DNA of 64,000 bases from Acidobacteriota bacterium. GTDB taxonomy: Bacteria; Acidobacteriota; Polarisedimenticolia; J045. The DNA lies in the NCBI GenBank assembly GCA_030949985.1, contig JAUZRX010000010.1:85148-149147 (forward strand). Reading direction: 5' to 3'. The translations under genes were made by a program, and so were the position numbers. Shown in pieces: positions 16,147-30,616 of this stretch; the stretch's first letter is position 1, and each line of letters opens with the position of its first letter. The notes beneath the pieces are model-generated. The model saw only the letters and a list, made by a program, of their open reading frames with translations, did no database searches and was not told where the DNA came from.

Positions 16147-16484
16147 GTACCCGCTCGACCCGGGGACGGGCCGGGGACGGGAAAAAAGCGAACGGGAGAG
16201 CCCGACCCGCAGCCCTTCGAGCCTTTCTCGACGACCACGGTCTCCCGTCCGCACGCTGCCCGGCTCTGAAAGCAACCCCCGTGCCAGCCGCGGACAGGGT
16301 CGCAACTCGCTGCAGGAAGCCCACTTACAAGCTCGTCGCGGCAGCACCCATCGGCAAATTCGAAAGACGGAAAACGAAACCGTACCTGCCGCCGCGCTCC
16401 GCCGCCCGGATGCCCTCGGCCGCATCGCGCATGGGCCTTCCGGAGGCCGGCCTCGGCGTCTGCGTCCCTGCCTGAAACGAAGAC

Positions 16485-16517
16485 GGGCGCCGTCCCCAGG
16501 GGGTGGGAACGGCGCCC
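16485..16517 (-). terminator. Hairpin terminator downstream of nrdJ (convergent with XRE regulator)
   Basis: GGGCGCCGTCCC-N7-GGGAACGGCGCCC inverted repeat 30 nt beyond the nrdJ stop. U-rich tract (GUCUUCGUUUCAGG) follows on the minus strand. Confidence 0.4.
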
Positions 16518-16547
16518 TGAACTCCTGACTCAAAGGGGGGGGAGAGA

Positions 16548-19322
16548 TCAGGAGCAGCCAGAAGTGGCCCCGCAATTGGTGCATGCGTAACACGCGCCAT
16601 TGCGGACCATGATCGTACCGCAAACGTGGCAGGCGGGGGCATCGGACTGGGCGAGAAAAACAGCTTTTTCCCGGGCTTCCATCCCCGGATCCACCTCCGT
16701 CGCCCCCGGGCTCTCCCGTCCTTCGAGATCCGCGTCGCCGGATTCCACGTCCGTGTCGAGGAACTTCAACGCCAACCAGCGGAAGAGGTAGTCGATGATG
16801 GACTTGGCGATGGGAATCTGCGGGTTGTTGGTAAAGCCCGACGGCTCGAAGCGCACGTGGGCGAACTTGTCCGCCAGGACCTTGAGCGGCACCCCATACT
16901 GGAGGGCCAGCGAGATCGCCGTGGCGAAGGAGTCCATCAAGCCGGAGACCACCGACCCCTGCTTGGCCATCACCACGAAGATCTCTCCCGGCTGGCCCGT
17001 ATCGGGATAGAGGCCCACGGTCACGTAACCCTCGTGCCCCTGCACCGAGAACTTGTGGGTGATCGCCTTCCTCTCGTCGGGCAGACGGCGGCGCTGGGGT
17101 TGGCCGGCCACCGTACCCTCGGCCCCCTCGCCCGCCGCCGCGGAAAGGGGCTGGGTCTGCTTGCAGCCATCGCGGTAGATCGCCACCGCCTTGAGCCCCA
17201 GCCGCCAGGCCTCCATGTAGGCCCGTTCCACGTCATCCACCGTGGCGTCGGCGGGCATGTTGACGGTCTTGCTGATCGCTCCGGACAGGAAAGGCTGGGC
17301 GGCAGCCATCATCCTCAGATGCCCCATCCACTCGATGGAACGGGTCCCGCGAGCCGGCCGGAACGAACAATCGAAGACCGGCAGGTGCTCCTCCTTGAGG
17401 TGGGGAGCCCCCTCGATGGTTTCGTTGGCATCGATGTAATCGATGATTTCCTGCACCTGCTCGTTGCTGTAGCCCAGCCGGCCGAGAGCCACGGGCACAG
17501 TGTTGTTGACGATCTTGATCGTCCCGCCGCCGACGAGTTTCTTGTACTTGATCAGCGCCAGGTCCGGCTCGATACCCGTGGTGTCGCAATCCATCATGAA
17601 GGCGATCGTGCCGGTGGGCGCCAGCACCGTGACCTGGGAATTGCGGAAGCCGGAACGGCGCCCCACCTGCTGCGCCTTGCGCCAGGCCGTCCGCGCAGCC
17701 CGGAGCAGGTTGCCGGGCACCAGGTCCTCGGGCAGAGATTCGGCGTGCAGACGATGCTTGGAGATCACCTCCTGCATCGACTCGGCGTTGGGATCGTAGC
17801 CGGCGAAAGGCCCCCCGTGAAGCTCGGCGATTCGGGCCGAGGTGTGGTAAGCCTCGCCGCACATCAGCGCCGTGATCGCCGCGGCGTAGGCCCGCCCACT
17901 CTCGGAATCGTAGGGCAGGCCGAGGGTCATCAGCGTAGCGCCCAGGTTGGCGTAGCCCAAGCCCAGGGGCCGGTACTTGTACGAGTTCTCGGTGATCTGG
18001 GGCGTGGGATAGCTGGCGTTGTCGACCAGGATCTCCTGGGCCAGGATCGTCATGGACACCGAGTGGCGGAACCCCTCGGCATCGAACTCGCCGTCGGTGG
18101 TGAGATACTTTTTGAGGTTGATCGACGCCAGGTTGCAGGCGGTGTCGTCAAGGAACATGTACTCCGAGCAGGGGTTCGACGCGTTGATGCGCCCCGAGGC
18201 CTTGGAGGTGTGCCAGGAGTTGATCGTGGTGTCGAACTGGATCCCCGGGTCGCCGCATTCCCAGGCCGCCTCGGCGATCTTGCGCATCAGCTCCCGGGCG
18301 CGCACCGTCTTGACCGTCTGACCGTCCATCACGGCCTTGAGATCCCAGGAACGATCTTCCGACACGGCCCGCATGAACTCATCGGAAACCCGCACCGAGT
18401 GATTGGCGTTCTGAAAGAAGACCGAATCGTAGGCCCCGCCCTGGACATTGAAAGCCGCGTCGTAACCGGCCTCGATCAGGACTCGCGCCTTGCGTTCTTC
18501 GCGCACCTTGCATTCGACGAATTCCTCGATGTCCGGGTGATCCGCGTTCAGGATCACCATCTTCGCCGCCCGGCGGGTCTTGCCGCCGGACTTGATCACC
18601 CCGGCGAAGGCGTCATAGCCGCGCATGAAGGAAACCGGCCCCGAGGCGGTGCCGCCACCGGAGAGGGGTTCCTTGGAGGACCGGAGCGCAGAAAGGTTGC
18701 TGCCGGTACCCGAGCCGAACTTGAAGAGCATCCCCTCGGTCTTGGCCAGGTCGAGAATCGAGGCCATCGAGTCCTTCACCGAATTGATGAAACAAGCGCT
18801 GACCTGGGGCTTTTCCTCGACGCCGCAGTTGAACCACACGGGCGAGTTGAAGGCCATCCGCTGATGCAGCAGCAGATAGGTCAGCTCGTCCCTGAAAGCG
18901 TCCCGATCGCTCTCCGTGGCGAAGTAGCCCCCCTCGTCGCCCCACTGCACGATGGCCCGCACCACCCGCCCGATCAACTGGCGGACGGAACTTTCGCGCT
19001 CCGCGGTTCCCGGCGTTCCCCGAAAGTACTTCTGGGCGACGATGTTGGTCGCCGTCTGCGACCAGAAGGCGGGCACCTCCACGTCGGCCTGCTCGAAGAA
19101 GACCTCTCCCTTCTCGTTGGTGATCGACGCGGTGCGTTTCTCCCACTCCACCTGCTCGAAAGGATCTTCTCCCGCCTTGGTGAAGAAACGCTCGATGGCC
19201 AGCCCCGGCCCTTCGACGAATCCGCCCCGGTTCCGGGGTGCGGAAGCCTCCGGTCCGCCGCTGGAGATCCTGGCCGGGTGGGGAGAACCAACGGGAAGCT
19301 GGGGGTTTTCCTGGACCGACAT
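16548..19322 (-). CDS. nrdJ: Adenosylcobalamin-dependent (class II) ribonucleotide reductase
   Basis: GLAIERFFT, FNSPVWFNCG, NPCSEYMFLDDTACNL (thiyl-radical Cys region), C-terminal CxxC/CxxC zinc ribbon. Start set at ATG 19322 (MSVQENPQ..., GGAGAG RBS) rather than track start 19415. Confidence 0.9.
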   Translation of the reverse strand: MSVQENPQLPVGSPHPARISSGGPEASAPRNRGGFVEGPGLAIERFFTKAGEDPFEQVEWEKRTASITNEKGEVFFEQADVEVPAFWSQTATNIVAQKYFRGTPGTAERESSVRQLIGRVVRAIVQWGDEGGYFATESDRDAFRDELTYLLLHQRMAFNSPVWFNCGVEEKPQVSACFINSVKDSMASILDLAKTEGMLFKFGSGTGSNLSALRSSKEPLSGGGTASGPVSFMRGYDAFAGVIKSGGKTRRAAKMVILNADHPDIEEFVECKVREERKARVLIEAGYDAAFNVQGGAYDSVFFQNANHSVRVSDEFMRAVSEDRSWDLKAVMDGQTVKTVRARELMRKIAEAAWECGDPGIQFDTTINSWHTSKASGRINASNPCSEYMFLDDTACNLASINLKKYLTTDGEFDAEGFRHSVSMTILAQEILVDNASYPTPQITENSYKYRPLGLGYANLGATLMTLGLPYDSESGRAYAAAITALMCGEAYHTSARIAELHGGPFAGYDPNAESMQEVISKHRLHAESLPEDLVPGNLLRAARTAWRKAQQVGRRSGFRNSQVTVLAPTGTIAFMMDCDTTGIEPDLALIKYKKLVGGGTIKIVNNTVPVALGRLGYSNEQVQEIIDYIDANETIEGAPHLKEEHLPVFDCSFRPARGTRSIEWMGHLRMMAAAQPFLSGAISKTVNMPADATVDDVERAYMEAWRLGLKAVAIYRDGCKQTQPLSAAAGEGAEGTVAGQPQRRRLPDERKAITHKFSVQGHEGYVTVGLYPDTGQPGEIFVVMAKQGSVVSGLMDSFATAISLALQYGVPLKVLADKFAHVRFEPSGFTNNPQIPIAKSIIDYLFRWLALKFLDTDVESGDADLEGRESPGATEVDPGMEAREKAVFLAQSDAPACHVCGTIMVRNGACYACTNCGATSGCS

Positions 19323-19695
19323 GCTCTCTCCGAATCTTTCCGGCTGGTGGCGCCCCGAAAAGCGCGGCAGCCGGCTCGCGACATAGCCCCGGCCACGGGC
19401 AGGCCGGATAGCCAAAGTTCAAATGTTCAACCCGGGACCTGCAGGAAAACTTCCGCGCCGCCGGCGCCGAAGTGCCCATGACTTCCCGCAAGGCCCTCCG
19501 CCCCACGGATCCGGCCTGACCGCCCCGTGTCTCCCTGGACCGGCTCCCACCGGCCGCCTGCCGCCGGCCCTCGATCCCCGGCAGCACCTCCTCGAGACCC
19601 CGCCCGAACCGCCGCTGGAAACAAGTACGGACAGTGGCGGGCCCCGATGACGCCAGCGAACCCTAGCCGAGATGGATGCCGCATGTCAACGCCAA

Positions 19696-19745
19696 AAGCA
19701 CAATATCTAGTGGCTCCCCCCTGCGATCACCCAATATATAGCATT
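19696..19745. promoter_or_regulatory. Tandem NrdR boxes (NrdR operator) upstream of nrdJ
   Basis: Two imperfect palindromes AAGCACAATATCTAGTGG (19696-19713) and CACCCAATATATAGCATT (19728-19745) match the NrdR box consensus acaCwAtATaTwGtgt. Centre-to-centre spacing 31 bp (three helical turns), in an unusually AT-rich patch 280-400 bp upstream of the nrdJ start. Confidence 0.6.
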
Positions 19746-19946
19746 TTCAAGGCTTTAGCCTGCCGGCCGGGAGAAGCGACGCCCGCTGGGGGACCGGCAA
19801 CGGGGAGCCGCCAGCCTCCCCGGGCATTGACAGCGTATCAAAGGCGAAACTGCGAATCCCCCGACACTCCGGCCGGCGCCCTGCCGGCAACAGTCTCCGG
19901 AGATTGGACAGGGAACGCGGGCCATGCTATAACCCGCCGTCCCCGT

Positions 19947-20021
19947 GGGGCGTTAACTCAGTGGTAGAGTGCCATCTTCACACGGTGGAAGTCGTAGGTT
20001 CAAATCCTACACGCCCCACCA
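19947..20021 (+). tRNA. tRNA-Val (anticodon CAC)
   Basis: GGGGCGT/ACGCCCC acceptor, D-arm ACTCAGTGGTAGAGT, anticodon stem CCATC/GGTGG with loop UUCACAC, T-loop TTCAAAT, 3' ACCA. Confidence 0.85.
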
Positions 20022-20082
20022 CGAGGATCCGGCTGTCCGGCCCGCCGCGGCGGCGCAGGCAGCGCACCCCTCTTAAGGCAGT

Positions 20083-20158
20083 GGGCCGCTAGCTCAGTTG
20101 GGAGAGCGCCGCGTTCGCAACGCGGAGGTCGAGGGTTCGAGTCCCTTGCGGTCCACCA
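20083..20158 (+). tRNA. tRNA-Ala (anticodon CGC) with G3:U70 identity pair
   Basis: GGGCCGC/GCGGTCC acceptor gives the G3:U70 wobble diagnostic of tRNA-Ala. Anticodon loop UUCGCAA, T-loop TTCGAGT, CCA encoded. Confidence 0.85.
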
Positions 20159-20374
20159 TACTCTCTCCCGCCGCCGGCTCATGCATCCTGCACCCGCTGA
20201 CACTTCGCGGCACCCCGGTGTCACGCCGCGTCACTCCATGCCGGCCAGGCTGGCACGCGCGCCAGATTGGCGCGGCCGGCGACACCTGGAGCGGACAGTT
20301 CGCCAGCCCCCGAACCCTTTCTCCTGCGATTGTTTCCATCTCGAAAGAGCCTTTCTGTGGCTTCCGAGGATACC

Positions 20375-20390
20375 TGGCATTAGGTTTGCA
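20375..20390 (+). promoter_or_regulatory. Near-consensus sigma-54 (-24/-12) promoter TGGCAT-N5-TTGCA
   Basis: TGGCATTAGGTTTGCA: GG and GC at the canonical positions 2-3 and 14-15 (consensus TGGCAC-N5-TTGCW). Predicted TSS about 20401. Confidence 0.5.
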
Positions 20391-20400
20391 CTAAAGAGGG

Positions 20401-20456
20401 GCGACTGGCTCCTTTTCCTCTACCAACTTCGACCCCCCGGCGGGGTCGTTTTTTTT
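20401..20456 (+). ncRNA. Candidate tiny sigma-54-dependent transcript (about 55 nt), C/U-rich 5' part plus intrinsic terminator
   Basis: Interval between the predicted sigma-54 TSS and the terminator T-run. No ORF. Would read GCGACUGGCUCCUUUUCCUCUACCAACUU + terminator hairpin. Confidence 0.25.
20430..20456 (+). terminator. Rho-independent terminator (CGACCCC-CCGGC-GGGGTCG + T8)
   Basis: 7-bp GC-rich stem, 5-nt loop, followed by eight consecutive T. Lies downstream of the tRNA-Val/tRNA-Ala pair and of the sigma-54 promoter. Confidence 0.7.
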
Positions 20457-20570
20457 GACCCCGCCCCCAAGGCCCTTCCCGCCGGGACTTTCCGACCCGC
20501 CCCAGGTTCCGGCCCGCCCCCCCATCCGCCGCTCCCCCTTTCTCCACCGGCCTGCACCGCCACCGCTTCA

Positions 20571-20588
20571 CTGTTGCACTCTGCAACG
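20571..20588. promoter_or_regulatory. Palindrome CTGTTGCA-CTC-TGCAACG (copy 1), 21 bp upstream of the STPK-bEBP start codon
   Basis: TGT-N11-ACA / TTGCA-N3-TGCAA dyad of the length typical for enhancer-binding-protein sites. Same motif recurs at 26086-26104. Confidence 0.45.
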
Positions 20589-20608
20589 TCGCGGGGCATA
20601 AGGGGTCC

Positions 20609-23600
20609 ATGAAAAAGCCCCGACAACCACCCTCCCCCGAAGAAGCACCCCGGATCATCGCCGGACGCTACGAAATCCTCGGACGCCTGGGAGCCGGCGC
20701 AGCCGCGCAGGTCTATCGGGTCCGCGACACCGTCGGCGGCGGGACGCTGGCTCTCAAGCTGTTGGCCGGCAGCGATGGCCGCGAGTCCCCGGCCCTGATC
20801 CGGGCCTTCCACCACGAGTTTCAGCTCCTGACCCGCCTGCGTCACCCTCACTTGGTGCAGGTCCACGACTTCGGCGTGCAGCAGCCCGGAGGCGAGGGTG
20901 TGGCGGTGCCCTGGTTCACCATGGACCTGGTTCCCGGTCATCCCGTGGACGAAGTGCTCGGAGCCTCCCCCGACTGGGCCTGCCTGGCCCGGGTCGCCGA
21001 CGCGGTGCTCGATGCCCTCGGCTCCCTCCACGCCCAGGGGCTGGTCCACCGCGACGTGACACCCGCCAACATCCTCGTCGGCCCGGAGATGGAGCGGGAT
21101 CCGCCGCCGGTGTGGCTGATGGACCTGGGGCTGGCCGAAAGCGCGGCCAGCGTCGATGCGGGCCGGATCCGCGGCACCCTGGCCACTGTCGCCCCGGAAA
21201 CCCTGCGGGGCGGAGCGGTCGATGGCCGGGCGGACCTCTACTCCCTGGGCTGTGTTCTCTTCCGCCTGGCCACCGGCGAGGACCCGTTCAGCGGCAACAC
21301 ACCCTTCGAGATCCTGCGGGCGCACCTGTCCACCCGCCCCACCCCACCGCGGCACCTCAACCCGGAGGTGCCTGCCAGCCTGGAGGCCCTGATCCTCGAA
21401 CTGCTGGCCAAGCAACCGGAGCAACGCCCGTCCACCGCCGACGAGGTGCGCCGCCGCCTGGCCGGCCTGTCCGGACGCCACCCCCAGCGCCTGCCTCCCC
21501 TGGCGGAACCCTTGACGCCGGCCCTCGCCGGTCGAGAGCGGGAGATCGAACTGTTCCGCACGGCTCTCGAAGACCTCTCCCGGGAGCGGGGCGCCGTGCT
21601 CCTGGTGGAAAGCGAGCCGGGCATGGGCCGCTCCCGACTGCTCGAGGAGTTCCGGCTGCTGGCCCGTCTTTCCGGACGGCCGGCGCTGCTGATCCGCGGA
21701 GCCGAGGCGCCCCGCCGGCCCTTCGGCCTCGCCGACACCATGCTCGCGCACCTGGCCAGCGGCGGGGGGGGGCAGGCCGACACCCTCCAGGCCCGGGACC
21801 TGGACTCCCGGGCCGAACGGTTCAGCCGCCACCTCGTGGGACGGGAGAGCGTCCTGCTGATCGACGATCTCCATGCCGCCGACGCCGCCTCGGTAACCCT
21901 GGTCGAAGACCTCGCGCGGCGCATCCCCCGGGCGGGACTCCCCTGCCTGATGGTAGCCACCGTGGCGGGCGACGGACTGCCGCTGAAAGACGTGTTGCTC
22001 GAACAGGGTCTGGCCCGGCTGCTGCGACTGCGCCCCCTGGACGAGGCGGCCACCGGCCGACTGGGCGCCACGATGCTGGGGGAGAGCCTGCTGCCCGAAC
22101 CCTGGCAGCGAGCCCTCCACCGGGCCAGCGGTGGCGTGCCCGCCGCAGCAGTGGACATGGTCACGGCCCTGGTGCGCTCGGGCAAGGCCGGGCCGGGTGC
22201 GCCCCTGCCCGAAGCCGTACCGGCAGAACTGGCCGAGGGCCGCCTGGTCTCGCCCCGTTCCACCCAGCGCCTCGATGCCCAGTGGGAGCAGTGGCCGGCC
22301 GGTAGTCGGGCCGTGCTCGCGGCCCTGGCCCTGGCCGAAGGGGAGAGCCTGGACTTCGACGAACTGGAAGCCATCGAGCCCCACTCGGCCACCCACCCCG
22401 ACGATATCGACCTGCTGGTCCGGGAGGGCCTGGTGCGCCGGGTCCGGCGAGCGGAAGGCCGGCTGGGACTCGCCCTGGCCGTCCCCGCCCTGGCCGAAGC
22501 CATCGTCGCCCGCCTGCCGGCCGGGGCGCTCGAGTCGCTCCACCTGCGCCGGGCCGAGTGCCTGGCCGGACAAGAGGGCCGCCAGCTCCAGCAGGCCAGA
22601 CACCTTCTCGCCGCCGGGCAGACCGAGAGGGGAGCCCGCCTGCTGGTGGAAGCGGCCGCCGCGGCCCTGGACGCCGGCACACCCCGGCAGGCCCTCGGCC
22701 TCTGCGACCGGGCGCTGGCCGTCCTGGGGGAGGTGGAAGACGCCTCCCTGCTCCAGCGCCTGCGGCGTATCCGGGCCTCCGCCCTGGCCGCCCTCGGTCA
22801 TCCCGAGGACGCCGCCGCCGAGTACGGCCGGGCCCTCGCCATCGTCGGGGCCGAGACTGCGGAACTCTCCCGCACCCTGCGGGCGGCCGGCACCTTCCAC
22901 GGAGAAACCGGAAAAATCGACACGGCCCTCGACCAGCTCGAACAGGCCCTGGCCCTCAGTGACGAGTTGGGGGACACGGCGGGGGGCGCGGGGGTCCTGC
23001 TGGAGATGGGACGCCTGCTGGCCGCCATGGGCCGCCTGGCGGACGCGGCCGAGCGTCTCGAGACCGGGCTGCGCCAGGCACGACGCGCGGGGCAGGCCCA
23101 CCTCGTCGCCGCCCTGCTGCTGGCCCGCGGAGACCTGGCTCTCCGCGAGGGCCAGCTCGAGCGGGCCCAGGAGTGCTACCGGGAAGCCGAACAGGAATCC
23201 CTCGGCACCGGCTCCACGGCCGGCCGCCACGCCGCCCGGCGCGGTCGCGTGCTGGCCATGGAGGCCTCGGGCCGACTGGGAGACGCCCTCGAAGCCCTCG
23301 ACGACCTGCTGGCCGACGCCCGGCGCACCGGCCACCAGGGACGAGAGGCCGAGGCCCAGGCCCTGACCGGAAGGCTGCTCGGCCGCCTCGGACGCCGTTC
23401 GGAGGCGGTCGGCCGCCTTTCCCAGGCCGCCACCCTCTATCGCAGGCTGGGACGCAGCGCCCCCGCCGCCGAGGTGCTCGCCGAGCAGGCCGAACGCCTC
23501 GGTGAACTCGGGCGCCTGCGCGTCGCCCTGACCCGGGCCGGGGAGGCCCGGGCTCTGGCCCAGGAGGCCCGTTCGGAACCCGCCGCCAACGCCGCGGCCT

Positions 23601-25861
23601 TCGCGCTGGGCACGTTGCACGCCTTCCTCGGTGACGTGGAGGCGGTGCACGAGGCCCTCTCACGCCTGGGCCGGGCCGAAGCCCCCCTTTTCCGGGCCCG
23701 GCGCTCGCTGCTGCTGGGCCGGGCGCACCTGGCGGCGGGCCAGCCCGACCGGGCCCGGGAACTGCTGCAGGAGTGCTCCTTCCTGGCTCGCCGCGTTCGC
23801 CTGTCGGAACTGGAAGTCCAGGGGCTGGTCGGGCTGGCGGAAAGTTACCTCGCCCTGCGCGACGAAGAGCGCGCCGGGCTGGCCCTGAAGAAGATTCGCG
23901 CCGAGGCGGAAAAGGGAGGCCAGGAAGAGATGGTGGCCTGCGCCCGCTTGCTGGCGGCCGAATTGGAACTGGCCCAGCCGGGAGGCGAGATGAGCCTGGC
24001 CCGGGACGAGGCGCTCGCCGCCGCCGAGGTGCTCGCGCGCCGGGAGCGCTCCGACCTGGCCTGGCGGGCCTGGGCCGCCGCCGCCACCGCCTGCCGGCGC
24101 CTGGGGGAGGTCGACGGCGCCGCCCGCTGCGAGCGGGACGCCATCGCCGGCCTCGACGCCCTGCTCGAGGGCCTCCCCGGCCCCCAACGTACCCGCTGGA
24201 GGGCGCAGCCGCGGGTGCGCTCCCTGCTGGCCGCCGCCGGTGCGGAAAACGCTGGATACCGGGCGGCCCCCGAAAGCCAGGCAGCCCCCGAGACCACCCG
24301 GCAGGTCCAGGCCCTCGAACGCCTGCTCGAGATCAACCGGGCCCTCAACTCCACTCTCGAACTCGAACGCCTGCTCGAGATCCTGGTCGATACCGCCATC
24401 GAGCTGACCGGGGCGGAGCGGGGCTTCGTCCTTCTCGAGGAAGGCGGCGACACCGCCGCGGAACTGGCCCGCCGGGAGGGGGGCGTGGACCTGGCCGGCG
24501 AGGAACGCGAGTTCAGCCGCTCGGTGGCGCGGCAGGTGATCCGCGACGACAAGCCCCTGGCCTCCCACGACGCCCAGACCGACGAACGGCTGAGCGACTC
24601 CCGCTCGATTCACGCCCTGCAGATCCACTCGATCCTGGCCCACCCCCTGCGGGTGCGCGGCAAGGTCGTCGGCGCCATCGTCACCGACTCCCGCAAGCCC
24701 ATGGCCCTCTTCGACCAGTCGAGCCAGACCTGGCTTTCCCGCCTGGCGGACCAGGCGGGCATCGCCCTGGCCAACGCCCGCCTGGTCACCCAGCTCCGCA
24801 CCCAGGCCGAGGAGATCCGCCGCCTGAACGAGCAGCTCGCCGAACAGGTGGAAGAGCAGCGCGTGGAGATCCTCGAAAAGCAGTCCAACCTGGAAGTGCG
24901 GTATCGCTACGACTGCATGATCGGCGCGTCGAACCCGATGCAGAAGGTCTACCGGGCCATCGACAAGATCCTGCCCACCGAGATCCCGGTGCTGGTCACC
25001 GGTGAATCCGGTACCGGCAAGGACCTGGTGGCCCGGGTGCTGCATTACAACGGCCCGCGCAGCGAGCAGCGCTTCGTGACCGTCAACTGCGCGGCCCTGA
25101 CCGACACCCTGCTCGAGTCGGAACTCTTCGGCCACCGCAGGGGCTCGTTCACGGGGGCCGACCGGGATCGCAAGGGCCTGTTCGAGCAGGCCCACCAGGG
25201 CACCCTCTTCCTCGACGAGATCGGTGAGATGCCCCTGCACCTGCAGCCCAAACTGCTGCGGGCGATCCAGTTCGGCGAGATCCGCCGGGTGGGGGAAGAC
25301 ACCGACCGCCGGGTGGACGTGCGTATCGTGGCGGCGACCAACCGGGACCTGTCGGAGATGGTCGCCGCGGGCAAGTTCCGCGAAGACCTCTTCTACCGCC
25401 TGGACGTGGCCCAGGTTCACATGGCTCCCCTGCGCGAGCGCCTCGAGGACCTGGGCCTGCTGGTGGGCCACTTCCTCGAGCACGCAGCGAAGAAGACGGG
25501 GCAGGCGCCGAAGTCCATCGAACCCCCCGCTCTGCGTCTTTTCCTGCGCTACGACTGGCCGGGTAACGTCCGGGAACTGGAGAACGAAGTCACCAAGCTC
25601 GCCGCCTTCACCCGGGGCGAAGTGATCACCGAGCTGGACGTGCTGGAAAACGCTGCTTTCCTCGAGCGCGCGCGGGCCCGCCAGGCCGGCCGCCCCCGGG
25701 ACGAGAGCATCAGCACTCTCGAAGCCACCGAACTCGAGCAGATCCGCCAGGCCCTGGCCACCGCCGGAGGTAACCGGACTCGCGCCGCGGAGATGCTCGG
25801 CATCGACCGCTCCACCCTCTACCGCAAGCTCAAGCGCTACGCCGATCGCCTCGACCCCTAG
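20609..25861 (+). CDS. 1,750-aa fusion: Ser/Thr protein kinase - NTPase/TPR scaffold - GAF - sigma-54 interaction (AAA+) domain - Fis-type HTH (enhancer-binding protein)
   Basis: Kinase subdomains (LAGSDGRESPALIRAFHHEF..., HRDVTPANILV, DLGLA, APE-like TVAPETLRG); P-loop-like EPGMGRSRLLEEF and long TPR/helical region; GAF (LERLLEINRALNSTLELERLLEILVDTA...); sigma-54 AAA+ with Walker A GESGTGKDLVARVLH, ESELFGH, GSFTGA (GAFTGA variant) and R-finger region; C-terminal HTH (NRTRAAEMLGIDRSTLYRKLKRY). AAGGGG RBS 7 nt before ATG. Confidence 0.85.
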   Translation: MKKPRQPPSPEEAPRIIAGRYEILGRLGAGAAAQVYRVRDTVGGGTLALKLLAGSDGRESPALIRAFHHEFQLLTRLRHPHLVQVHDFGVQQPGGEGVAVPWFTMDLVPGHPVDEVLGASPDWACLARVADAVLDALGSLHAQGLVHRDVTPANILVGPEMERDPPPVWLMDLGLAESAASVDAGRIRGTLATVAPETLRGGAVDGRADLYSLGCVLFRLATGEDPFSGNTPFEILRAHLSTRPTPPRHLNPEVPASLEALILELLAKQPEQRPSTADEVRRRLAGLSGRHPQRLPPLAEPLTPALAGREREIELFRTALEDLSRERGAVLLVESEPGMGRSRLLEEFRLLARLSGRPALLIRGAEAPRRPFGLADTMLAHLASGGGGQADTLQARDLDSRAERFSRHLVGRESVLLIDDLHAADAASVTLVEDLARRIPRAGLPCLMVATVAGDGLPLKDVLLEQGLARLLRLRPLDEAATGRLGATMLGESLLPEPWQRALHRASGGVPAAAVDMVTALVRSGKAGPGAPLPEAVPAELAEGRLVSPRSTQRLDAQWEQWPAGSRAVLAALALAEGESLDFDELEAIEPHSATHPDDIDLLVREGLVRRVRRAEGRLGLALAVPALAEAIVARLPAGALESLHLRRAECLAGQEGRQLQQARHLLAAGQTERGARLLVEAAAAALDAGTPRQALGLCDRALAVLGEVEDASLLQRLRRIRASALAALGHPEDAAAEYGRALAIVGAETAELSRTLRAAGTFHGETGKIDTALDQLEQALALSDELGDTAGGAGVLLEMGRLLAAMGRLADAAERLETGLRQARRAGQAHLVAALLLARGDLALREGQLERAQECYREAEQESLGTGSTAGRHAARRGRVLAMEASGRLGDALEALDDLLADARRTGHQGREAEAQALTGRLLGRLGRRSEAVGRLSQAATLYRRLGRSAPAAEVLAEQAERLGELGRLRVALTRAGEARALAQEARSEPAANAAAFALGTLHAFLGDVEAVHEALSRLGRAEAPLFRARRSLLLGRAHLAAGQPDRARELLQECSFLARRVRLSELEVQGLVGLAESYLALRDEERAGLALKKIRAEAEKGGQEEMVACARLLAAELELAQPGGEMSLARDEALAAAEVLARRERSDLAWRAWAAAATACRRLGEVDGAARCERDAIAGLDALLEGLPGPQRTRWRAQPRVRSLLAAAGAENAGYRAAPESQAAPETTRQVQALERLLEINRALNSTLELERLLEILVDTAIELTGAERGFVLLEEGGDTAAELARREGGVDLAGEEREFSRSVARQVIRDDKPLASHDAQTDERLSDSRSIHALQIHSILAHPLRVRGKVVGAIVTDSRKPMALFDQSSQTWLSRLADQAGIALANARLVTQLRTQAEEIRRLNEQLAEQVEEQRVEILEKQSNLEVRYRYDCMIGASNPMQKVYRAIDKILPTEIPVLVTGESGTGKDLVARVLHYNGPRSEQRFVTVNCAALTDTLLESELFGHRRGSFTGADRDRKGLFEQAHQGTLFLDEIGEMPLHLQPKLLRAIQFGEIRRVGEDTDRRVDVRIVAATNRDLSEMVAAGKFREDLFYRLDVAQVHMAPLRERLEDLGLLVGHFLEHAAKKTGQAPKSIEPPALRLFLRYDWPGNVRELENEVTKLAAFTRGEVITELDVLENAAFLERARARQAGRPRDESISTLEATELEQIRQALATAGGNRTRAAEMLGIDRSTLYRKLKRYADRLDP

Positions 25862-26085
25862 CAGCCCGCTGAAAAAGCCGACATCCCCGCCCGGGAGCCG
25901 AAGTTCGGCTTCCCGGGTCCACGGTCCGGGTTGTTGTCTTCGGCTCGCCGCCCTGTGCAAAGAAGCTCCGCAAGCGGTTCGAAACCGGCGGTTCGACCGC
26001 CAGGCCTCTCGAGCGCCGGGAGCAGCGTCTTCACCGAAGCGCTCCCGCCGCCGTGAACGCGATCCGGGGCCACCGGCTGACTGTT

Positions 26086-26104
26086 GCAAGCTGCAACAGC
26101 GGTG
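26086..26104. promoter_or_regulatory. Palindrome CTGTTGCA-AGC-TGCAACAG (copy 2; candidate enhancer/UAS) plus extra TGCAAC half-site at 26115-26120
   Basis: Perfect 8+3+8 dyad. Centre lies about 111 bp upstream of the -24 element of the sigma-54 promoter at 26205, the typical UAS-to-promoter distance for bEBPs. Confidence 0.5.
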
Positions 26105-26204
26105 GGGAGTGCAACGGTGCAGTGGAGGGAGACACAGCCCCGCATGCTGCCCGAAATTGTTCGTATTAGTTGTAAATAGGCCGTTTTCAGGCTAGCGACG
26201 AAAC

Positions 26205-26220
26205 TGGTACGGTGATTGCT
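26205..26220 (+). promoter_or_regulatory. Sigma-54 (-24/-12) promoter TGGTAC-N5-TTGCT
   Basis: TGGTACGGTGATTGCT with GG/GC at canonical positions; one mismatch to TGGCAC. Located in the lowest-GC stretch of a 600-bp ORF-free region; predicted TSS about 26231. Confidence 0.55.
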
Positions 26221-26230
26221 CTATGTCAGG

Positions 26231-26460
26231 GCGCGAAGGCGGAAAGACCCGACAAGGGGTGGCCGGAGGGTAGGAAAAACCCAGTTGCGACCCACGCAAC
26301 CGATGCAGCGCCCAGCCCGATGCCAAAGGGTCGAAAGACCCAAGCCCCCTAACCTTCGGTACCCCTTGTCGGGGCCTACTTGACAGCAAGCGCACGCCGA
26401 ACCGGCTCGAAGATAGTTTCCTTGGTACAGAAAGCCCGCCTCTCCCCCTGGCGGGCTTTT
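26231..26460 (+). ncRNA. Candidate sigma-54-dependent structured RNA (about 230 nt): sRNA or terminator-containing leader of the downstream HK operon
   Basis: No credible ORF. Long-range helix GACCCGACAAGGGG/CCCCUUGUCGGGG enclosing hairpins GUUGCG-ACCCA-CGCAAC and GGGUC-GAAA-GACCC (GNRA tetraloop); repeated GAAAGACCC motif; ends in an intrinsic terminator. Confidence 0.35.
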
Positions 26461-26463
26461 CTG
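26431..26463 (+). terminator. Rho-independent terminator (AAAGCCCGCC-loop-GGCGGGCUUU + UUUUCUGUGUG)
   Basis: 10-bp stem, 9-nt loop, T-rich tail. Sits about 50 nt upstream of the sensor kinase start codon, so could also act as an attenuator. Confidence 0.65.
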
Positions 26464-26509
26464 TGTGTTCGTAGCTGTTTCGAGGGCGCCGGAGCGCTAT
26501 CATCCGGCG

Positions 26510-29500
26510 ATGATGAACCAGCGCCCCGGCACGCGGCCTTCACCGCGCTCGGCCGTTCTCCTGCCGGCGGCCCTGGCGCTGGCCTGCGGCCTGTTGCCCT
26601 ACCGCCGGGCGGCCTGGGCGGCCGCCGCGCTGGTCCTGTGGGCGCTGGTGTTCCTGCTGGCGACCTGGAGCCGCCAGCCGCGGTCGCGCCTGCTGCCGGC
26701 GGTGCTCCTGGTGCTCGGCGGCCTGGCCACCACCCCCGAATGGCGCCCGGTTCCCGGGCCCGACCATTTCCTCGCCCCGGCCGCCGAGCAGGTGCAGCAG
26801 CGATGGCGGGAGCAGGTCGAAATCCTCGACGCGGCGGTGGCGCCGCCCCCCCCGGCCGGTGGCGACTACGCCTGGCTCGACCAGCGCCGGCAGAGCCTCG
26901 GAGAGCGTGGCGGCCTGACGGTGCTGCCCGAGGGGGGAGGCCCGCCGCTGGGCTGGTCCGGCTGGACCACGCCCCTCGCCGCCGGGGAACGAGCACGGCT
27001 CGCGGCGAGCCTCGCCCCCGGCCCGGCCCTGATGGTCCTGCGCCGCGGCCTGAGCCTGCGCCTGGTCTGCGCCCGGCGCTACACCGACCCCGCCCGCTGG
27101 CTGGTGGCCGAGATCGCACTTCCCCCGGAGCCCGCCCCGGGCCCCCTGGGCGGAGGGCTCGGGCCCCACGTGCAGGCGCGGCTGCGCTGGGAAGCCGTGG
27201 GCGAAGGCATCCAGGCCGAGATCGGCGGTACCGACGAGGGGACCGCCCCCGCCTTCTGGTCCATGATCCCCCTCCAGGCTCCCGACGGCAGCCTGATGGC
27301 CCGGGCGACCCTGACCCAGTCCCCCCCCGAGGTGATCGCCCGGGACCACGCCCGCAGGCGCCAAGGCCTCTTCGGCCTGCTCGGCACCCTGTGGCTGATC
27401 GCCACCGCCATGGCCGGCGGGCGCGGCGGCGCCCTGCGCCTGGCGGTGGCGCGAGGGGTCTGGCTGGTGGCCCAGCCGGCGCCGCTGCTGGGTCTCGGCA
27501 GCGCCGCCACGGCGCCCTGGCTCCCGGAGACGCTGCTCCCAACCCACCCATGGGCCCGCTGGCTGGCCGAAGGGCTGGTCGGCCGGCCCCTGGACGCGGC
27601 CCTGACGGGCCTGGCCCTCGCCGGCGTATCCGCCCTGGTGGGCCTGCCTCTCTCGCCCCGACGGCGCCGCGGGATCGGCATCGGCGGACTGGCCCTGGCG
27701 GGGACCGGCCTGGGCCTGGTCCATCGCCTGACCCTCGCCACGGAACTCTCCCCGGGTGCGGTGGTGCTCCCCGAAGGAGGCGGCGTGGTGGCAGCGCTGC
27801 TGATGGTCGCCCTGGCCGCACTCCCCTGGGCGGGTTTTCAGCTCGCCCTGCGCTGCCTCGGCAGCGCCGTGGGAGGTCGCACATGGCTGGCCGCGGCCCT
27901 GCTGGCGGGGCTGACGGCAGGCTCCGTCCACGCCCTGACCCTGCCCGCGGCCGGGCGCCAGAGGGCCGTGCGCGAGTTGGCACCGGAGCTGCTGCAGCGG
28001 GGATGGACCTGGGAGAACGCCCTGCTCGAAACCCTGGCCCTGGCCGTTCCTCCCGACCGCCGGCCGGTGCTGGCCCGGGAGCGGGATGCCATCGACCTGT
28101 GGTGGAACTCGCCCCTCGGCCGGATGGGCCTGGCGTCGGGGGTCTGGAAATACGACGCCCGGGGGCGCGTGGTGGACCGCTTCATCACCGGCGTTCCCCC
28201 GGTGGACCCCGAACCGCGCCTGGTGGCCGCCGACCTCGAAGACGGCCCGACCGGCCCCTTTCCCCGGCGCTTCGATGCCCCCGAAGTGGAGACCCAGCGC
28301 TTCGTCGAGGGCCAGTTCCGGCTGGTGCGGGCGGAGGTCCTGCGTCCCGACGGTGGAAGCTGGGTCGCGGCCATCCTGGCCGAGCCCGGAAACATCCCCT
28401 CCCGCCGAGCCGACGACCCTCTCGGCGCGGCGATCCGGGCCGAGACCGACAAGCCGATCCTTCCCCGCCGGGGGGCCCTCGAGCCCCGGCTCGCCTGGTT
28501 CGACCCGGCGGGACATCTTCTCCACTCGGAGTTGGAGGCCGGCCCTCCCGCGCCCCTCGCCCCCCCCACCGCTCCCCGCTGGCGCCGGATCCACGAGCCG
28601 GGCTCCCGCGGCTACGACGTCTACGAGGTGGCGGACGCCACGGGGACCCTCTGCCTGGCAGTCGTGCCGCCGGGGCTGCTGGAGATGGCGGCGATTCCCG
28701 TGGGCTGGGCGGTGAGCCTGCTGGCCGGTGCCCTGCTGACCCTCGCCCTGCACCGTATCGAGCAGGATCCCCGTGGCGCGGTGCTGGGCGTCTTCCCCCG
28801 CCTGCGGGCGGCGGCGGGGCGCTTTGGCGTGCAGGTCGGCCTGGTGCTGGTCGTCGCGGGCCTGGCTCCACTGTTGGCCCTGGCCGGGGCGGGGCGCGCG
28901 GCGGCCTCGGCCCAGGCCCATCAGCGCCTGACCTCCGACGGTCGGCGCACGGCTCACTTCGCCCGTCGCCTGGTGGAGGACTACCTGGCCCTGGGGGAAG
29001 GCGAACCCCTGGCAGCCACCGACGCGGAACCCATTGCCGCCTGGCTGGCCCGCACCCTGGGCGAGAACCTCTTTCTTTGGCGTGACGGTGCCCTCGCCGC
29101 CGGTAGCCGCAGCGACCTGGTCAGAGCCGGCCTGTGGCCCGAACGACTGCCCGGGCGCACCTGGCGCGAGCTGACCCTCGGCCGCCGTCCCCTGCTGATC
29201 CGGCGGGAGGGCCTGCTCTCGGCGGCCGCCTCGGGCGCGGCGGTGGTCTACAGTCCCTACCGGGGGCCCGACGGCAACCCCGGTGTGCTGACCATTCCTC
29301 TCGCCCGCGCAGGCCGGCGCTATGCCGAGAGCCTGGCCGACATGGACCGGGCGCTGCTGGTCAGCACGGCCCTGCTGCTGGCCCTTTCCTTCGCCCTGCT
29401 GCGTCCGGCCACCCGTCGGCTGGTCCGCCCCCTCTCCCAGCTCGAGCAGGCCACCGGCCGCCTGGCGGCCGGCCACTTCGACTCGCCGATTCCCGTGGCG

Positions 29501-30616
29501 GGCTGCGAAGAGACCCGCTCGCTGGGTCGTGCTTTTCGCCTGATGGCCCGTTCCCTCGCCCGGCAGCAACGGGGACTCGAACGTCGGCGGGCGGCGATCG
29601 AGACCATCATCGCCAGCATCCCCCTGGCCGTGATGGCCGTCACCCGGGACCGCAGGGTCTGGGCCGCCAACCCGCGGGCGGGACAGCTCCTGGGAGTCAC
29701 CCCCGCCGAAGCGCTGCGGCTCGGGAACGATCCCCTGGCCCGCACGGTGGAGCGCCTGGTCGGCCAGGGCGGCGAGCGCCGGGAGAGCCTCGAGATCGAC
29801 GAGGGGGACCGGCATCGCCACCTGCGGGTCTCCGCCCTCGACCTGCCCGGACTGGAAGAGGGACGCGGCCTGCGGCTGATCGTCATCGAGGACCTGACCG
29901 ACGCGGTGCAGTCCGAGCGGCTGGCGGCCTGGGCCGAAATGGCCCGGCGCATCGCCCACGAGATCAAGAATCCCCTGACGCCGATCAGCCTGATGGTCTC
30001 CCACGTCCAGCGCCTGCTCGAGCGCCGGGACCCCGGGCTCGAGCAGAGCCTGACCCGCGCCCTGGCCACCATCGACGAACAGGTGCAGGTGCTGCGGGAG
30101 ACCGCCCGGGAGTTCGCCGACTACTCCCACCTGCTCCACGCCAGCCTGGAACCGGTGGACCTGGCCCCCGAGGTGCGTACGTGGCTGGCGGCCTACGCCA
30201 TGGCGGAAGATGACGCCACGCCGCTGGAGATGGACGGACCCGCGAACCTGCCGCCCCTGCCCGCCGACACCCGGTTGCTGCGCCGGGCGGTGGTCAACCT
30301 GGTGGACAACGCCCGGGCGGCGGCCGCGGAGACCGGGGGCCGCGTGCGGGTCCGTTGGGGGGTACGGGATCAACCGGCGCCGGCGATCTGGATCCGCGTG
30401 GAGGACGACGGCCCGGGCATCGAACCCGGCACCCTGGGGCGTCTTTTCGAACCCGACGTCACCACCCGGGAGACGGGCAGCGGGCTGGGTCTGCCCATCG
30501 CCCGCCAGGCGGTGGAAGCCCACGGCGGCACCATCGAGGTGGACTCGAGCCCGGGCCGGGGCTCACGTTTCACGGTGGTGCTGCCCCGCCCCGCCGGGTG
30601 CGAGGAGGAGAGTTGA
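26510..30616 (+). CDS. Large membrane-anchored sensor histidine kinase (multi-TM N-terminus, HAMP/PAS, HisKA, HATPase_c)
   Basis: Start at ATGATG 26510 (MMNQRPG...) rather than the GTG 26465 of the track. Hydrophobic N-terminal segments; H-box AHEIKNPLTPISL (NtrB/AtoS-type), N/G boxes VVNLVDNARAA, DDGPGIEP, GSGLGLPIARQAVEAHGG. Confidence 0.8.
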   Translation: MMNQRPGTRPSPRSAVLLPAALALACGLLPYRRAAWAAAALVLWALVFLLATWSRQPRSRLLPAVLLVLGGLATTPEWRPVPGPDHFLAPAAEQVQQRWREQVEILDAAVAPPPPAGGDYAWLDQRRQSLGERGGLTVLPEGGGPPLGWSGWTTPLAAGERARLAASLAPGPALMVLRRGLSLRLVCARRYTDPARWLVAEIALPPEPAPGPLGGGLGPHVQARLRWEAVGEGIQAEIGGTDEGTAPAFWSMIPLQAPDGSLMARATLTQSPPEVIARDHARRRQGLFGLLGTLWLIATAMAGGRGGALRLAVARGVWLVAQPAPLLGLGSAATAPWLPETLLPTHPWARWLAEGLVGRPLDAALTGLALAGVSALVGLPLSPRRRRGIGIGGLALAGTGLGLVHRLTLATELSPGAVVLPEGGGVVAALLMVALAALPWAGFQLALRCLGSAVGGRTWLAAALLAGLTAGSVHALTLPAAGRQRAVRELAPELLQRGWTWENALLETLALAVPPDRRPVLARERDAIDLWWNSPLGRMGLASGVWKYDARGRVVDRFITGVPPVDPEPRLVAADLEDGPTGPFPRRFDAPEVETQRFVEGQFRLVRAEVLRPDGGSWVAAILAEPGNIPSRRADDPLGAAIRAETDKPILPRRGALEPRLAWFDPAGHLLHSELEAGPPAPLAPPTAPRWRRIHEPGSRGYDVYEVADATGTLCLAVVPPGLLEMAAIPVGWAVSLLAGALLTLALHRIEQDPRGAVLGVFPRLRAAAGRFGVQVGLVLVVAGLAPLLALAGAGRAAASAQAHQRLTSDGRRTAHFARRLVEDYLALGEGEPLAATDAEPIAAWLARTLGENLFLWRDGALAAGSRSDLVRAGLWPERLPGRTWRELTLGRRPLLIRREGLLSAAASGAAVVYSPYRGPDGNPGVLTIPLARAGRRYAESLADMDRALLVSTALLLALSFALLRPATRRLVRPLSQLEQATGRLAAGHFDSPIPVAGCEETRSLGRAFRLMARSLARQQRGLERRRAAIETIIASIPLAVMAVTRDRRVWAANPRAGQLLGVTPAEALRLGNDPLARTVERLVGQGGERRESLEIDEGDRHRHLRVSALDLPGLEEGRGLRLIVIEDLTDAVQSERLAAWAEMARRIAHEIKNPLTPISLMVSHVQRLLERRDPGLEQSLTRALATIDEQVQVLRETAREFADYSHLLHASLEPVDLAPEVRTWLAAYAMAEDDATPLEMDGPANLPPLPADTRLLRRAVVNLVDNARAAAAETGGRVRVRWGVRDQPAPAIWIRVEDDGPGIEPGTLGRLFEPDVTTRETGSGLGLPIARQAVEAHGGTIEVDSSPGRGSRFTVVLPRPAGCEEES

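Follow-up and report, generated by a model that had tools for sequence, protein, structure and literature searches.

A kinase-like, STAND-TPR and GAF fusion to a sigma-54 activator, and its predicted regulon, in an Acidobacteriota bacterium

How might eukaryote-like signalling be wired to sigma-54 on a single polypeptide, and which genes would such a protein control? Both questions are raised by a locus in a stretch of 64,000 nucleotides (the window) from an Acidobacteriota bacterium (assembly GCA_030949985.1, contig JAUZRX010000010.1, positions 85,148 to 149,147 of the forward strand). One gene there, at 20609-25861 of the window, joins a kinase-like domain, a STAND nucleotide-oligomerisation domain (NOD), a long tetratricopeptide repeat (TPR) region and a GAF domain to a sigma-54 AAA+ module and a Fis-type helix-turn-helix (HTH). 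The usual switch of an enhancer-binding protein is a receiver, PAS, GAF or V4R domain. We find that the fusion is a genuine single gene, that proteins of its kind are common and unstudied, and that conserved promoters, palindromes and putative RNAs on its flanks outline a compact predicted regulon. The features of the gene, all on the forward strand, are these:

20609..25861: fusion coding sequence, 1750 aa, kinase-like/STAND NOD/TPR/GAF/sigma-54 AAA+/HTH_8 (open reading frame, Pfam, orthologue collinearity)
20669..21442 (aa 21-278): Pkinase domain (Pfam E 8.5e-32; PDB sequence match to PknB, E 7e-41; Foldseek template-modelling score (TM) 0.90)
aa 306-448: AAA_16 domain (Pfam E 2.8e-12)
21524..22519 (aa ~306-637): STAND NOD, made up of a P-loop nucleotide-binding domain (NBD; Walker A GMGRS, Walker B LLIDD), a helical domain and a winged helix (AAA_16, AlphaFold2, Foldseek match to 6mfv_A, motifs)
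22520..24208 (aa ~638-1200): TPR superhelix of ~27 helices (TPR_12, TPR_19 and TPR_MalT matches; AlphaFold2 predicted local distance difference test (pLDDT) ~90-97)
24356..24775 (aa 1250-1389): GAF domain (GAF, GAF_2 and GAF_3 matches, E 1e-16 to 1e-18)
24917..25648 (aa 1437-1680): sigma-54 AAA+ module and lid, with GESGTGKD, GSFTGA and FLDEIGE (Sigma54_activat, AAA_lid_14; ZraR, NifA and FleQ structures)
25715..25840 (aa 1703-1744): Fis-type HTH_8, recognition helix IDRSTLYRKLK (Pfam E 1.7e-15)

The first matter to settle is whether this is one gene at all. An earlier note on this DNA, made from the letters alone, had described a single polypeptide carrying all of these domains, and the claim stands: the reading frame starts with ATG and runs through 1,750 codons, its translation has zero internal stops, and Pfam finds Pkinase, AAA_16/TPR, GAF, Sigma54_activat and HTH_8 along it. 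That the frame is an artefact of assembly or annotation fusing two genes is suggested only by its unusual length and by its origin in a metagenome-assembled genome (MAG), and we give the idea practically no credence. An NCBI Acidobacteriota MAG protein (P0001) is 100% identical over the full length; 12 orthologues (51-58% identity) are collinear with the fusion protein at 99% coverage, and so are eight of nine further full-length homologues (35-37% identity), the ninth aligning over 75%. This identity and collinearity exclude a frameshift or an assembly chimera. Thirteen orthologues collinear at 99% coverage, from independent assemblies, an uninterrupted frame of such length, and an architecture shared by 28 of 28 distant representatives sampled all speak for a real fusion.

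Structure prediction agrees. An AlphaFold2 model of residues 1-1200, built from 22 sequences, has a mean pLDDT of 86.7 and is confident across the domain junctions it covers, which also argues against an artefactual join. It contains a kinase fold and a P-loop domain whose five strands run parallel, then a helical domain, a hairpin of winged-helix type at 609-623 and TPRs over 638-1199. Foldseek aligns the model with PknB (TM 0.90, target-normalised) and with the solved STAND-TPR protein 6mfv_A (767 columns, E 2.8e-11). About 13 TPRs are counted in the protein, with Pfam matches at roughly aa 720-860 (TPR_12, and TPR_MalT below its cut-off); the superhelix is presumed to serve as sensor or scaffold.

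The output end of the protein is that of an activator. Sigma54_activat (PF00158) matches aa 1437-1603 with an E-value of 1.2e-69 and spans profile positions 1-167 of 168, AAA_lid_14 follows at aa 1609-1680, and among solved structures the module matches those of ZraR, NifA and FleQ (E 1e-81 to 1e-68). Walker A (GESGTGKD) and Walker B (FLDEIGE) are intact, as enhancer-binding proteins require of their AAA+ domain. The window protein has GSFTGA where the orthologue consensus is GAFTGA; in this loop F1514, G1516 and A1517 never vary, and T1515 hardly does. The best NCBIfam similarities are to NorR (359.9 bits, cut-off 476) and NifA (348.6 bits, cut-off 528.85), both below the equivalog cut-offs. 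Enhancer-binding proteins also pair an HTH with a site some 100-150 bp from a -24/-12 promoter, and that geometry occurs in 10 of 11 loci (below). With every feature that can be tested in the sequence present, the fusion protein is, on that evidence, a member of the enhancer-binding-protein family, and the complete GAF-AAA+-HTH activator without a receiver domain that the earlier note had recognised is borne out.

How unusual is such a protein? Residues 1001-1750 were searched against 1.84 billion representatives clustered at 50% identity, and about 81 of the best 150 clusters, counted from their lengths, stand for proteins of 1480-2180 aa that match at their C-terminus. In the 28 of these clusters scanned with Pfam, Pkinase, GAF and Sigma54_activat occur together in 28/28, HTH_8 in 27/28 and AAA_16 in 23/28; of the 120 best clusters at 90% identity, 66 have both PF00069 and PF00158. 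The earlier note's word "rare" cannot be kept, since about one in two of the 150 nearest protein families in a library of 1.8 billion proteins has the fusion. Nor is it confined to Myxococcota-like lineages, as the note had thought it might be: the window itself is from an Acidobacteriota MAG, and the named sources include Acidobacteriota, Myxococcota (Myxococcales, Polyangiales, Sandaracinaceae), Planctomycetota, Eisenbacteria and Vicinamibacterales. The architecture is already in the databases under generic names, and in the literature searched we found no experimental study or description of a kinase-sigma-54 activator fusion, in keeping with the note's description of such proteins as functionally uncharacterised, although genome or kinome surveys of myxobacteria may have remarked on such fusions. 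The same Pkinase-AAA_16-TPR-GAF series is found with other outputs, namely HisKA/HATPase_c (P0066, P0067, P0085, P0101, P0114), GGDEF (P0069, P0071, P0103) and SpoIIE (P0099), and with such a choice of outputs it is a reusable sensor cassette. Common and unstudied, the fusion would wire eukaryote-like signalling to sigma-54 in soil and sediment bacteria, Acidobacteriota and Myxococcota included. The fusion itself is thus of a known kind; what is new here is a conserved predicted regulon, two RNAs and clade-specific catalytic substitutions.

These substitutions bear on what the N-terminal domains can do. The VAIK lysine (K50), alphaC glutamate (E70), HRD aspartate (D149), asparagine (N154), Mg-binding aspartate (D172, as DLG) and APE motif of Hanks kinases are invariant across the 13 orthologues of a motif table, and the fold is that of PknB. 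The earlier note's "complete Hanks-type kinase" nevertheless needs correcting: the catalytic-loop lysine, which in canonical kinases (HRDxKxxN) contacts the gamma-phosphate, is threonine (T151, in HRDVTPAN) in 13/13 orthologues. These follow the pattern H[RGA]D[VI]TxxN, several having Gly or Ala in place of the HRD arginine. The STAND/MalT-like NTPase with TPRs fares likewise. The AAA_16 match, the fold found by AlphaFold2 and Foldseek, the NOD followed by a repeat sensor, and the Walker B motif LLIDD are all there, but the Walker A motif departs from the canonical GxxxxGK[ST], reading GxGR[ST] instead of GxGK[ST] in 13/14 sequences of the clade (P0001-P0014; P0009 has Leu). A sister clade at 36% identity and the wider family have the canonical lysine at both positions (HxDxKPxN, GxGK), and therefore the Thr/Arg clade is derived. 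(This natural variation, Lys against Thr and Arg, amounts to a set of ready-made mutants.)

A clade that has lost both lysines, often the HRD arginine as well, and that does not conserve activation-loop Ser/Thr residues, could have turned its kinase into a pseudokinase or ATP-binding sensor and its STAND P-loop into a non-hydrolysing nucleotide latch, in which case the activator would be gated by ligand or nucleotide and phosphorylation would play no part. We regard this as a serious possibility, somewhat short of an even chance, and it is compatible with the model proposed below. The other catalytic residues are nevertheless invariant, and the domain is under purifying selection: kinase-domain identity to clade 1 (the orthologues) and clade 2 (the sister clade) is 60%/44%, similar to GAF (63%/43%) and above the NBD (42%/26%) and TPR region (47%/28%), and a domain as well conserved as that is under selection, not decaying. 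Ser or Thr at the catalytic-loop lysine position also recurs among related Pkinase-AAA_16 proteins. Atypical kinases of the Bud32 and RIO types have Ser/Thr at that position and still hydrolyse ATP, acting as ATPases.

What would the activator control? The flanks of the gene were compared among nine loci with orthologues (L081-L089, two of them near-identical for one protein), two loci of clade 2 (L116 and L117, only 36% identical) and a fragment of a third lineage (L111), with the noncoding elements surveyed by regular expressions. The flanking features are as follows:

20198..20233, no strand: pair of degenerate inverted repeats, TGAC-N7-GTCA, upstream of P1, where another activator may have its enhancer
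20375-20389, forward strand: P1, sigma-54-type promoter TGGCATTAGGTTTGC, TGGCAT-N5-TTGC, conserved in 10/10 loci that have the region
20400..20457, forward strand: candidate small RNA sRNA1, ~58 nt, core CUCCUUUUCCUCUACC and intrinsic terminator
20572..20588, no strand: palindrome 1, TGTTGCActcTGCAACg, 37 nt ahead of the start codon, candidate operator for autoregulation and perhaps a downstream enhancer as well
26082..26098, no strand: palindrome 2, TGTTGCAagcTGCAACA, candidate enhancer (upstream activating sequence) for P2
26110..26115, forward strand: additional TGCAAC half-site, 12 nt past palindrome 2
26205-26219, forward strand: P2, sigma-54-type promoter TGGTACGGTGATTGC, TGGTAC-N5-TTGC (11-locus consensus TGGCAC-N5-TTGCT)
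26229..26470, forward strand: candidate RNA#2, ~240 nt, with a structured 5' domain, a C/U-rich stretch and a GC hairpin at 26432-26458
26510..30616, forward strand: HAMP-HisKA-HATPase_c histidine kinase, 1368 aa, followed by SBP_bac_5/permease ATP-binding cassette (ABC) transporter genes (profile scan, synteny)

Each related locus that covers P1, P2 or either palindrome has it at the corresponding place, far beyond chance, and the promoters together with TGTTGCA-N3-TGCAAC are conserved in 10 syntenic loci of two clades. In the 64-kb window this palindrome has two sites, 20572-20587 and 26082-26097; counted on both strands this makes 4 matches where 0.44 are expected, a number attained in none of the shuffles. 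The earlier note had seen sigma-54 promoters and copies of a palindrome on both flanks. All of these are conserved, but the flanks are not equivalent: P1 has TGAC repeats of its own, and of the two palindromes only the downstream one has the canonical geometry of an enhancer.

Downstream, palindrome 2 precedes P2 by 112-134 bp in 10/11 loci; in L116 the distance is 178 bp, with a second copy at 118 bp. Three loci have palindrome 2 beginning 3-9 nt past the stop codon of the fusion gene, and the TGCAAC half-site occupies the matching position in nine aligned clade-1 loci (one as TGCCAC) and also in L111 and L117. The fusion gene is paired with the histidine kinase in the 10 related loci that reach far enough downstream, clade 2 included, and where other genes (a sulfatase, a TPR gene, a 497-aa open reading frame or MurJ) are inserted between the two, as in L081, L087, L088 and L089, palindrome 2 and P2 remain with the RNA and kinase unit.

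From this arrangement we propose, with slightly more confidence than doubt, that the fusion protein binds the palindrome, activates P2 from palindrome 2 (and with it RNA#2 and, by read-through, the kinase/ABC operon), and regulates its own gene through palindrome 1. The protein would be a cytoplasmic, receiver-less GAF-AAA+-HTH activator like NifA or NorR, to which a PknB-like kinase and a STAND NOD-TPR unit have been added N-terminally. Its Fis-type HTH would bind the 7-3-7 palindrome TGTTGCA-N3-TGCAACA, and an AAA+ ring assembled at palindrome 2 and the half-site, ~120 bp upstream of P2, would use ATP and the GSFTGA loop to open the sigma-54 closed complex, yielding the structured RNA and then, by read-through, the ~1,300-aa HAMP histidine kinase and ABC transporter operon. 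Binding at palindrome 1 would give autoregulation. The GAF domain may repress the AAA+ ring until a ligand or signal arrives, as the GAF domain of NorR does (PMC2941729). Control of self-association, needed for an activator hexamer, would fall to the STAND NOD-TPR part; in the general STAND scheme a NOD (NBD, helical domain and winged-helix domain) and a repeat sensor, with effector domains at either end, undergo inducer-driven multimerisation, MalT and PknK being named members (PMC4381067). The kinase-like domain would be an ATP-dependent input, acting through auto- or trans-phosphorylation or through nucleotide-dependent switching. Sequence and comparison show the domain composition, the state of the motifs, and how the DNA sites and RNAs are conserved and spaced. 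We infer the assignment of protein to site, the direction of autoregulation, the STAND-driven assembly and any phosphotransfer, as well as the tie between Ser/Thr phosphorylation and open-complex formation that the earlier note had called hard-wired.

Upstream, the two elements have different anchors. In nine loci (8/10 beyond the window) palindrome 1, of consensus YGTTGCR-N3-TGCRACR, precedes the start codon by 37-38 nt, and in two it is at -28 and -97; that of L087 is consistent with -37, the annotated start of this locus looking mistaken. Its distance to P1 (consensus across loci TGGCAY-N5-TTGC) floats between 118 and 306 bp. Since its position is fixed relative to the start codon, palindrome 1 is most likely, from the alignments, an autoregulatory operator of the fusion gene, and possibly also a downstream enhancer for P1. 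It overlaps a sigma-70-like -35/-10 arrangement read by eye, TTGCAC-17 bp-CATAAG-6 nt-ATG, a possible promoter for a leaderless fusion mRNA. (Both genes have conserved -10-like hexamers six nt before their starts, CATAAG...ATG at 20590-20611 for the fusion gene and TATCAT...ATG at 26496-26512 for the histidine kinase; the kinase start has no clear Shine-Dalgarno (SD) sequence, and the mRNAs of both genes may be leaderless.)

P1 has its own repeats. The two window copies lie at -156 and -177, and at least one copy of TGAC-N7/8-GTCA occurs at -88 to -143 from P1 in seven other clade-1 loci; upstream of P2 there are essentially none (two one-mismatch matches at unrelated positions), and in clade 2 none. 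Conserved repeats at canonical enhancer distance from P1 allow another assignment, in which the palindrome belongs to a different regulator, for example an NtrC-type partner of the kinase, and the fusion protein acts at P1 through TGAC-N7-GTCA or from solution. It would suit this assignment that by NCBIfam the histidine kinase is most similar to AtoS, which works with the sigma-54 activator AtoC, and that autoregulation is common among two-component operons. We consider it improbable, because the TGAC repeats are absent in clade 2 while the recognition helix (IDRSTLYRKLK in one clade, the nearly identical INRATLFRKLK in the other) and the palindrome are kept across clades, because palindrome 1 is anchored to the start codon of the fusion gene in both clades, and because the operon has no response-regulator gene. 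The same contrast, a helix and palindrome shared across clades and TGAC repeats specific to one, leads us to assign the palindrome to the HTH of the fusion protein and the TGAC repeats to another activator.

Several points weigh against the proposal that the fusion protein works from the palindromes. The pairing of palindrome and HTH rests on proximity and co-conservation, and an unlinked response regulator of NtrC type, such as a partner of the AtoS-like kinase, could bind the palindrome instead. No rpoN was found among the window reading frames scanned, so that sigma-54 is assumed. A consensus sigma-70 scan of 19400-26700 returned no promoter, and the promoter at palindrome 1 therefore depends on the manual reading. 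On the input side, no conserved phospho-acceptor Ser/Thr is evident in the activation loop among the orthologues, and with Lys-to-Thr in the kinase and Lys-to-Arg in the P-loop it may be that neither N-terminal enzyme turns over. Finally, the Myxococcota relatives L001, L002 and L004 show no comparable flanking arrangement of palindrome and sigma-54 promoter, and the regulon model is therefore limited to the Acidobacteriota clades. (These three were the only full-length relatives from a contig scan with the orthologue alignment, in which generic peptides such as FLDEIGEM and WPGNVREL mostly drew in unrelated activators.)

Both promoters lead into noncoding sequence. Behind P1, the sRNA1 core CUCCUUUUCCUCUACC (20409-20424) is invariant in eight aligned clade-1 loci (in L089, the first of two tandem copies), lengthened by an A at 20425 in seven of the eight, and followed by a terminator consisting of a GC stem (20430-20448) and a U8 run (U7-8 across loci). 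The core is single-stranded and complementary to SD sequences of the AGGAG type. We discarded as spurious an overlapping open reading frame of 143 aa (20181-20612), which runs across promoter and terminator and does not pass the codon-position GC test. Two observations concern the layout of this region: L089 has tandem P1-sRNA1 units (5732-5815 and 5846-5920), and some 60 nt of the window between the TGAC repeats and P1 (~20316-20374) align with the P1 of other loci and are perhaps a decayed duplicate.

Behind P2, the ~146-nt 5' domain of RNA#2 (26229-26374) has the invariant stretches GCGAAGGCGGAA, CCCGAC and GCGCCCAGCCC-AUGCC, and its closing helix, CCCGACAAGGGG/CCCCUUGUCGGG, undergoes compensatory changes from A-U to G-C. 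The window RNA folds with a minimum-free-energy z-score of -3.9. RNAalifold returns only the closing helix and two small helices; a second helix co-varies by eye (CCGGAGG/CCUUCGG, CCGGAGG/CCUCCGG, CGGGG/CCUCG, UUGAGG/CCUCGG). Copies were also found in L104, L108 and L111, the last being divergent and adjoining an activator fragment only 38% identical; these were the real ones among 26 loci from a metagenome scan with a 21-nt core of RNA#2, the other 23 being chance matches, mostly in GC-rich coding sequence. The P2 RNA of clade 2 has a similar length and a different 5' sequence. (Between that RNA and the histidine kinase, L116 and L117 have an open reading frame of 143-147 aa without a Pfam match, at 10961-11392 and 10914-11357 respectively, for which the window has no counterpart.)

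Rfam, searched at permissive thresholds, assigns no family to RNA#2 or sRNA1: the best scores are 18-19 bits against thresholds of 41-55, and for sRNA1 there is only a sub-threshold likeness to the anti-SD small RNAs tsRNA and mmgR. Both predicted transcripts have the layout of a sigma-54-dependent small RNA gene beside an activator gene (promoter, noncoding stretch, hairpin), conserved in 8-11 loci, and on this pattern sRNA1 and RNA#2 are candidate new RNA families. RNA#2 may be a leader of the kinase operon with read-through, a small RNA, or both.

Should both transcripts be trans-acting anti-SD small RNAs like those of LuxO/Qrr or CbrB/CrcZ, the output of the locus would be post-transcriptional and the kinase would have its own promoter. 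This partly overlaps our model, and as a full account of the locus we find it somewhat unlikely. The invariant sRNA1 seed and strong terminator in every aligned clade-1 locus are what it would predict, as is the 3' part of RNA#2, where CUCCUUUUCC precedes the hairpin in five of nine clade-1 loci, a one-base variant CUCCUUUUUCC in a sixth, and stretches of CUCCUU or CUCCUC type recur in clade 2; the RNA#2 hairpin of the window is followed by a U-rich tract, and a conserved TATCATCC..GCGATG marks the start of the histidine kinase. On the other hand, P1 may be served by another activator, and the seed of RNA#2 has diverged in the window and L081 to UUUCCUUGG or UCUCCUUGG (window: UUUCCUUGG). In L086, L087, L088 and L089 no U-tract follows the RNA#2 hairpin, so that transcription could continue into the kinase gene. 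Nor did a target emerge: in a duplex search of sRNA1 against 28 translation-initiation regions of the window the best energy was -24.9 kcal/mol, against -26.5 kcal/mol for the 1% tail of the background, and no exact complement of the seed exists elsewhere in the window.

A more far-reaching version of the proposed regulon, which we think quite unlikely, would have the STAND switch template the sigma-54 AAA+ ring, a Bud32/RIO-like kinase serve as its ATP-driven conformational or autophosphorylating input, and two anti-SD RNAs (one with a conserved structured domain of ~146 nt as a possible binding site for a ligand or protein) reprogramme translation and the expression of a giant histidine kinase in Acidobacteriota. 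If true, this would be a new signalling logic with undescribed sigma-54-dependent RNAs. In its plainer form, the locus is a compact predicted regulon of one motif at two sites, one canonically spaced promoter, one structured RNA and one histidine kinase, such as proteins of this kind had lacked, and the function of the fusion protein is therefore directly testable in vitro.

The wider neighbourhood is largely shared. Where sequence reaches, the clade-1 order is an HTH_3 (in some, HTH_3/cupin) regulator, a minus-strand class II ribonucleotide reductase (missing from L089), tRNAs, the fusion gene, the histidine kinase and the SBP_bac_5 ABC transporter. A tRNA-Val(CAC)/tRNA-Ala(CGC) pair (window 19947-20158) stands directly upstream of P1 and sRNA1, as it does in all six other loci scanned (L082, L083, L085, L086, L088 and L089). 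Two AT-rich boxes, acaatatctagtg and ccaatatatagca, ~32 bp apart at ~19695-19745, lie 5' of the ribonucleotide reductase gene and resemble tandem NrdR boxes. Over the stop codon of that gene is a C-rich region of paired hairpins (16476-16624, minus strand) with sub-threshold Rfam likenesses to 6C RNA (32.6 vs 47 bits) and ncS035. Just downstream of the gene is a third sigma-54-type promoter, a perfect TGGCACGGGGGTTGC (window 16286-16175, minus strand; L082 2055-2041, L083 1885-1871, L085 1838-1824), and behind it a conserved long-hairpin RNA of ~70 nt, GCGGACGGGAGACCG...CGGGUCGGGCUCUCCCGUYCGC, the window copy of which has a U-run. This promoter has no TGTTGCA palindrome near it, and another activator is therefore implied. 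Beyond the ABC transporter genes, at 34303-35571 on the forward strand, comes another Ser/Thr kinase gene, this one conventional (Pkinase E 9e-43) and with double zinc ribbons at the C-terminus of its product.

Which known systems does the fusion protein resemble? NifA, NorR and FhlA likewise combine GAF, an AAA+ domain with a GAFTGA-type loop and a Fis-type HTH, without a receiver, and the NifA structure matches the fusion protein at E 4e-72. None of the three has a counterpart of its ~1,240 N-terminal residues (kinase, STAND, TPR), and the site predicted for the fusion is a 7-3-7 palindrome. For the N-terminal part the nearest likeness is to MalT of E. coli and PknK of M. tuberculosis, which have the same NOD followed by a TPR/SUPR sensor and terminal effectors (PMC4381067); PknK moreover has an N-terminal Ser/Thr kinase, as the fusion does (PMC1262709, PMC4381067). 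MalT recruits sigma-70 polymerase through its effector, an HTH of LuxR type, and PknK lacks an output that binds DNA, whereas the output of the fusion is a second ATPase, the sigma-54 AAA+ ring; and the Walker A lysine of canonical STAND proteins is arginine in the fusion clade. The fusion would thus work as an activator of NifA/NorR type and as a STAND protein of MalT/PknK type at the same time. Cyanobacterial "dual kinases" join kinase, GAF and HisK (PMC1262709). Such dual Ser/Thr-His kinases have a similar kinase and GAF front, and in the fusion a transcription activator takes the place of their output. An activator gene next to a small RNA that is driven by a sigma-54 promoter with an upstream enhancer is familiar from GlrR-GlmY/GlmZ, CbrB-CrcZ, LuxO-Qrr and NtrC-NrsZ. 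Transcription of glmY, for one, is sigma-54-dependent (PMC3162934). Unlike the fusion protein, GlrR, CbrB, LuxO and NtrC are response regulators phosphorylated by histidine kinases, and the candidate RNAs described here match no Rfam family. A further parallel is found in Myxococcus xanthus, where enhancer-binding proteins with FHA domains are reported, in the work of Jelsbak et al. 2005 as cited in PMC12288465, to couple Ser/Thr-kinase signalling to sigma-54: there an FHA domain that binds phosphothreonine links the activator to a kinase acting in trans, whereas the fusion protein has no FHA domain and carries its kinase-like domain in cis.

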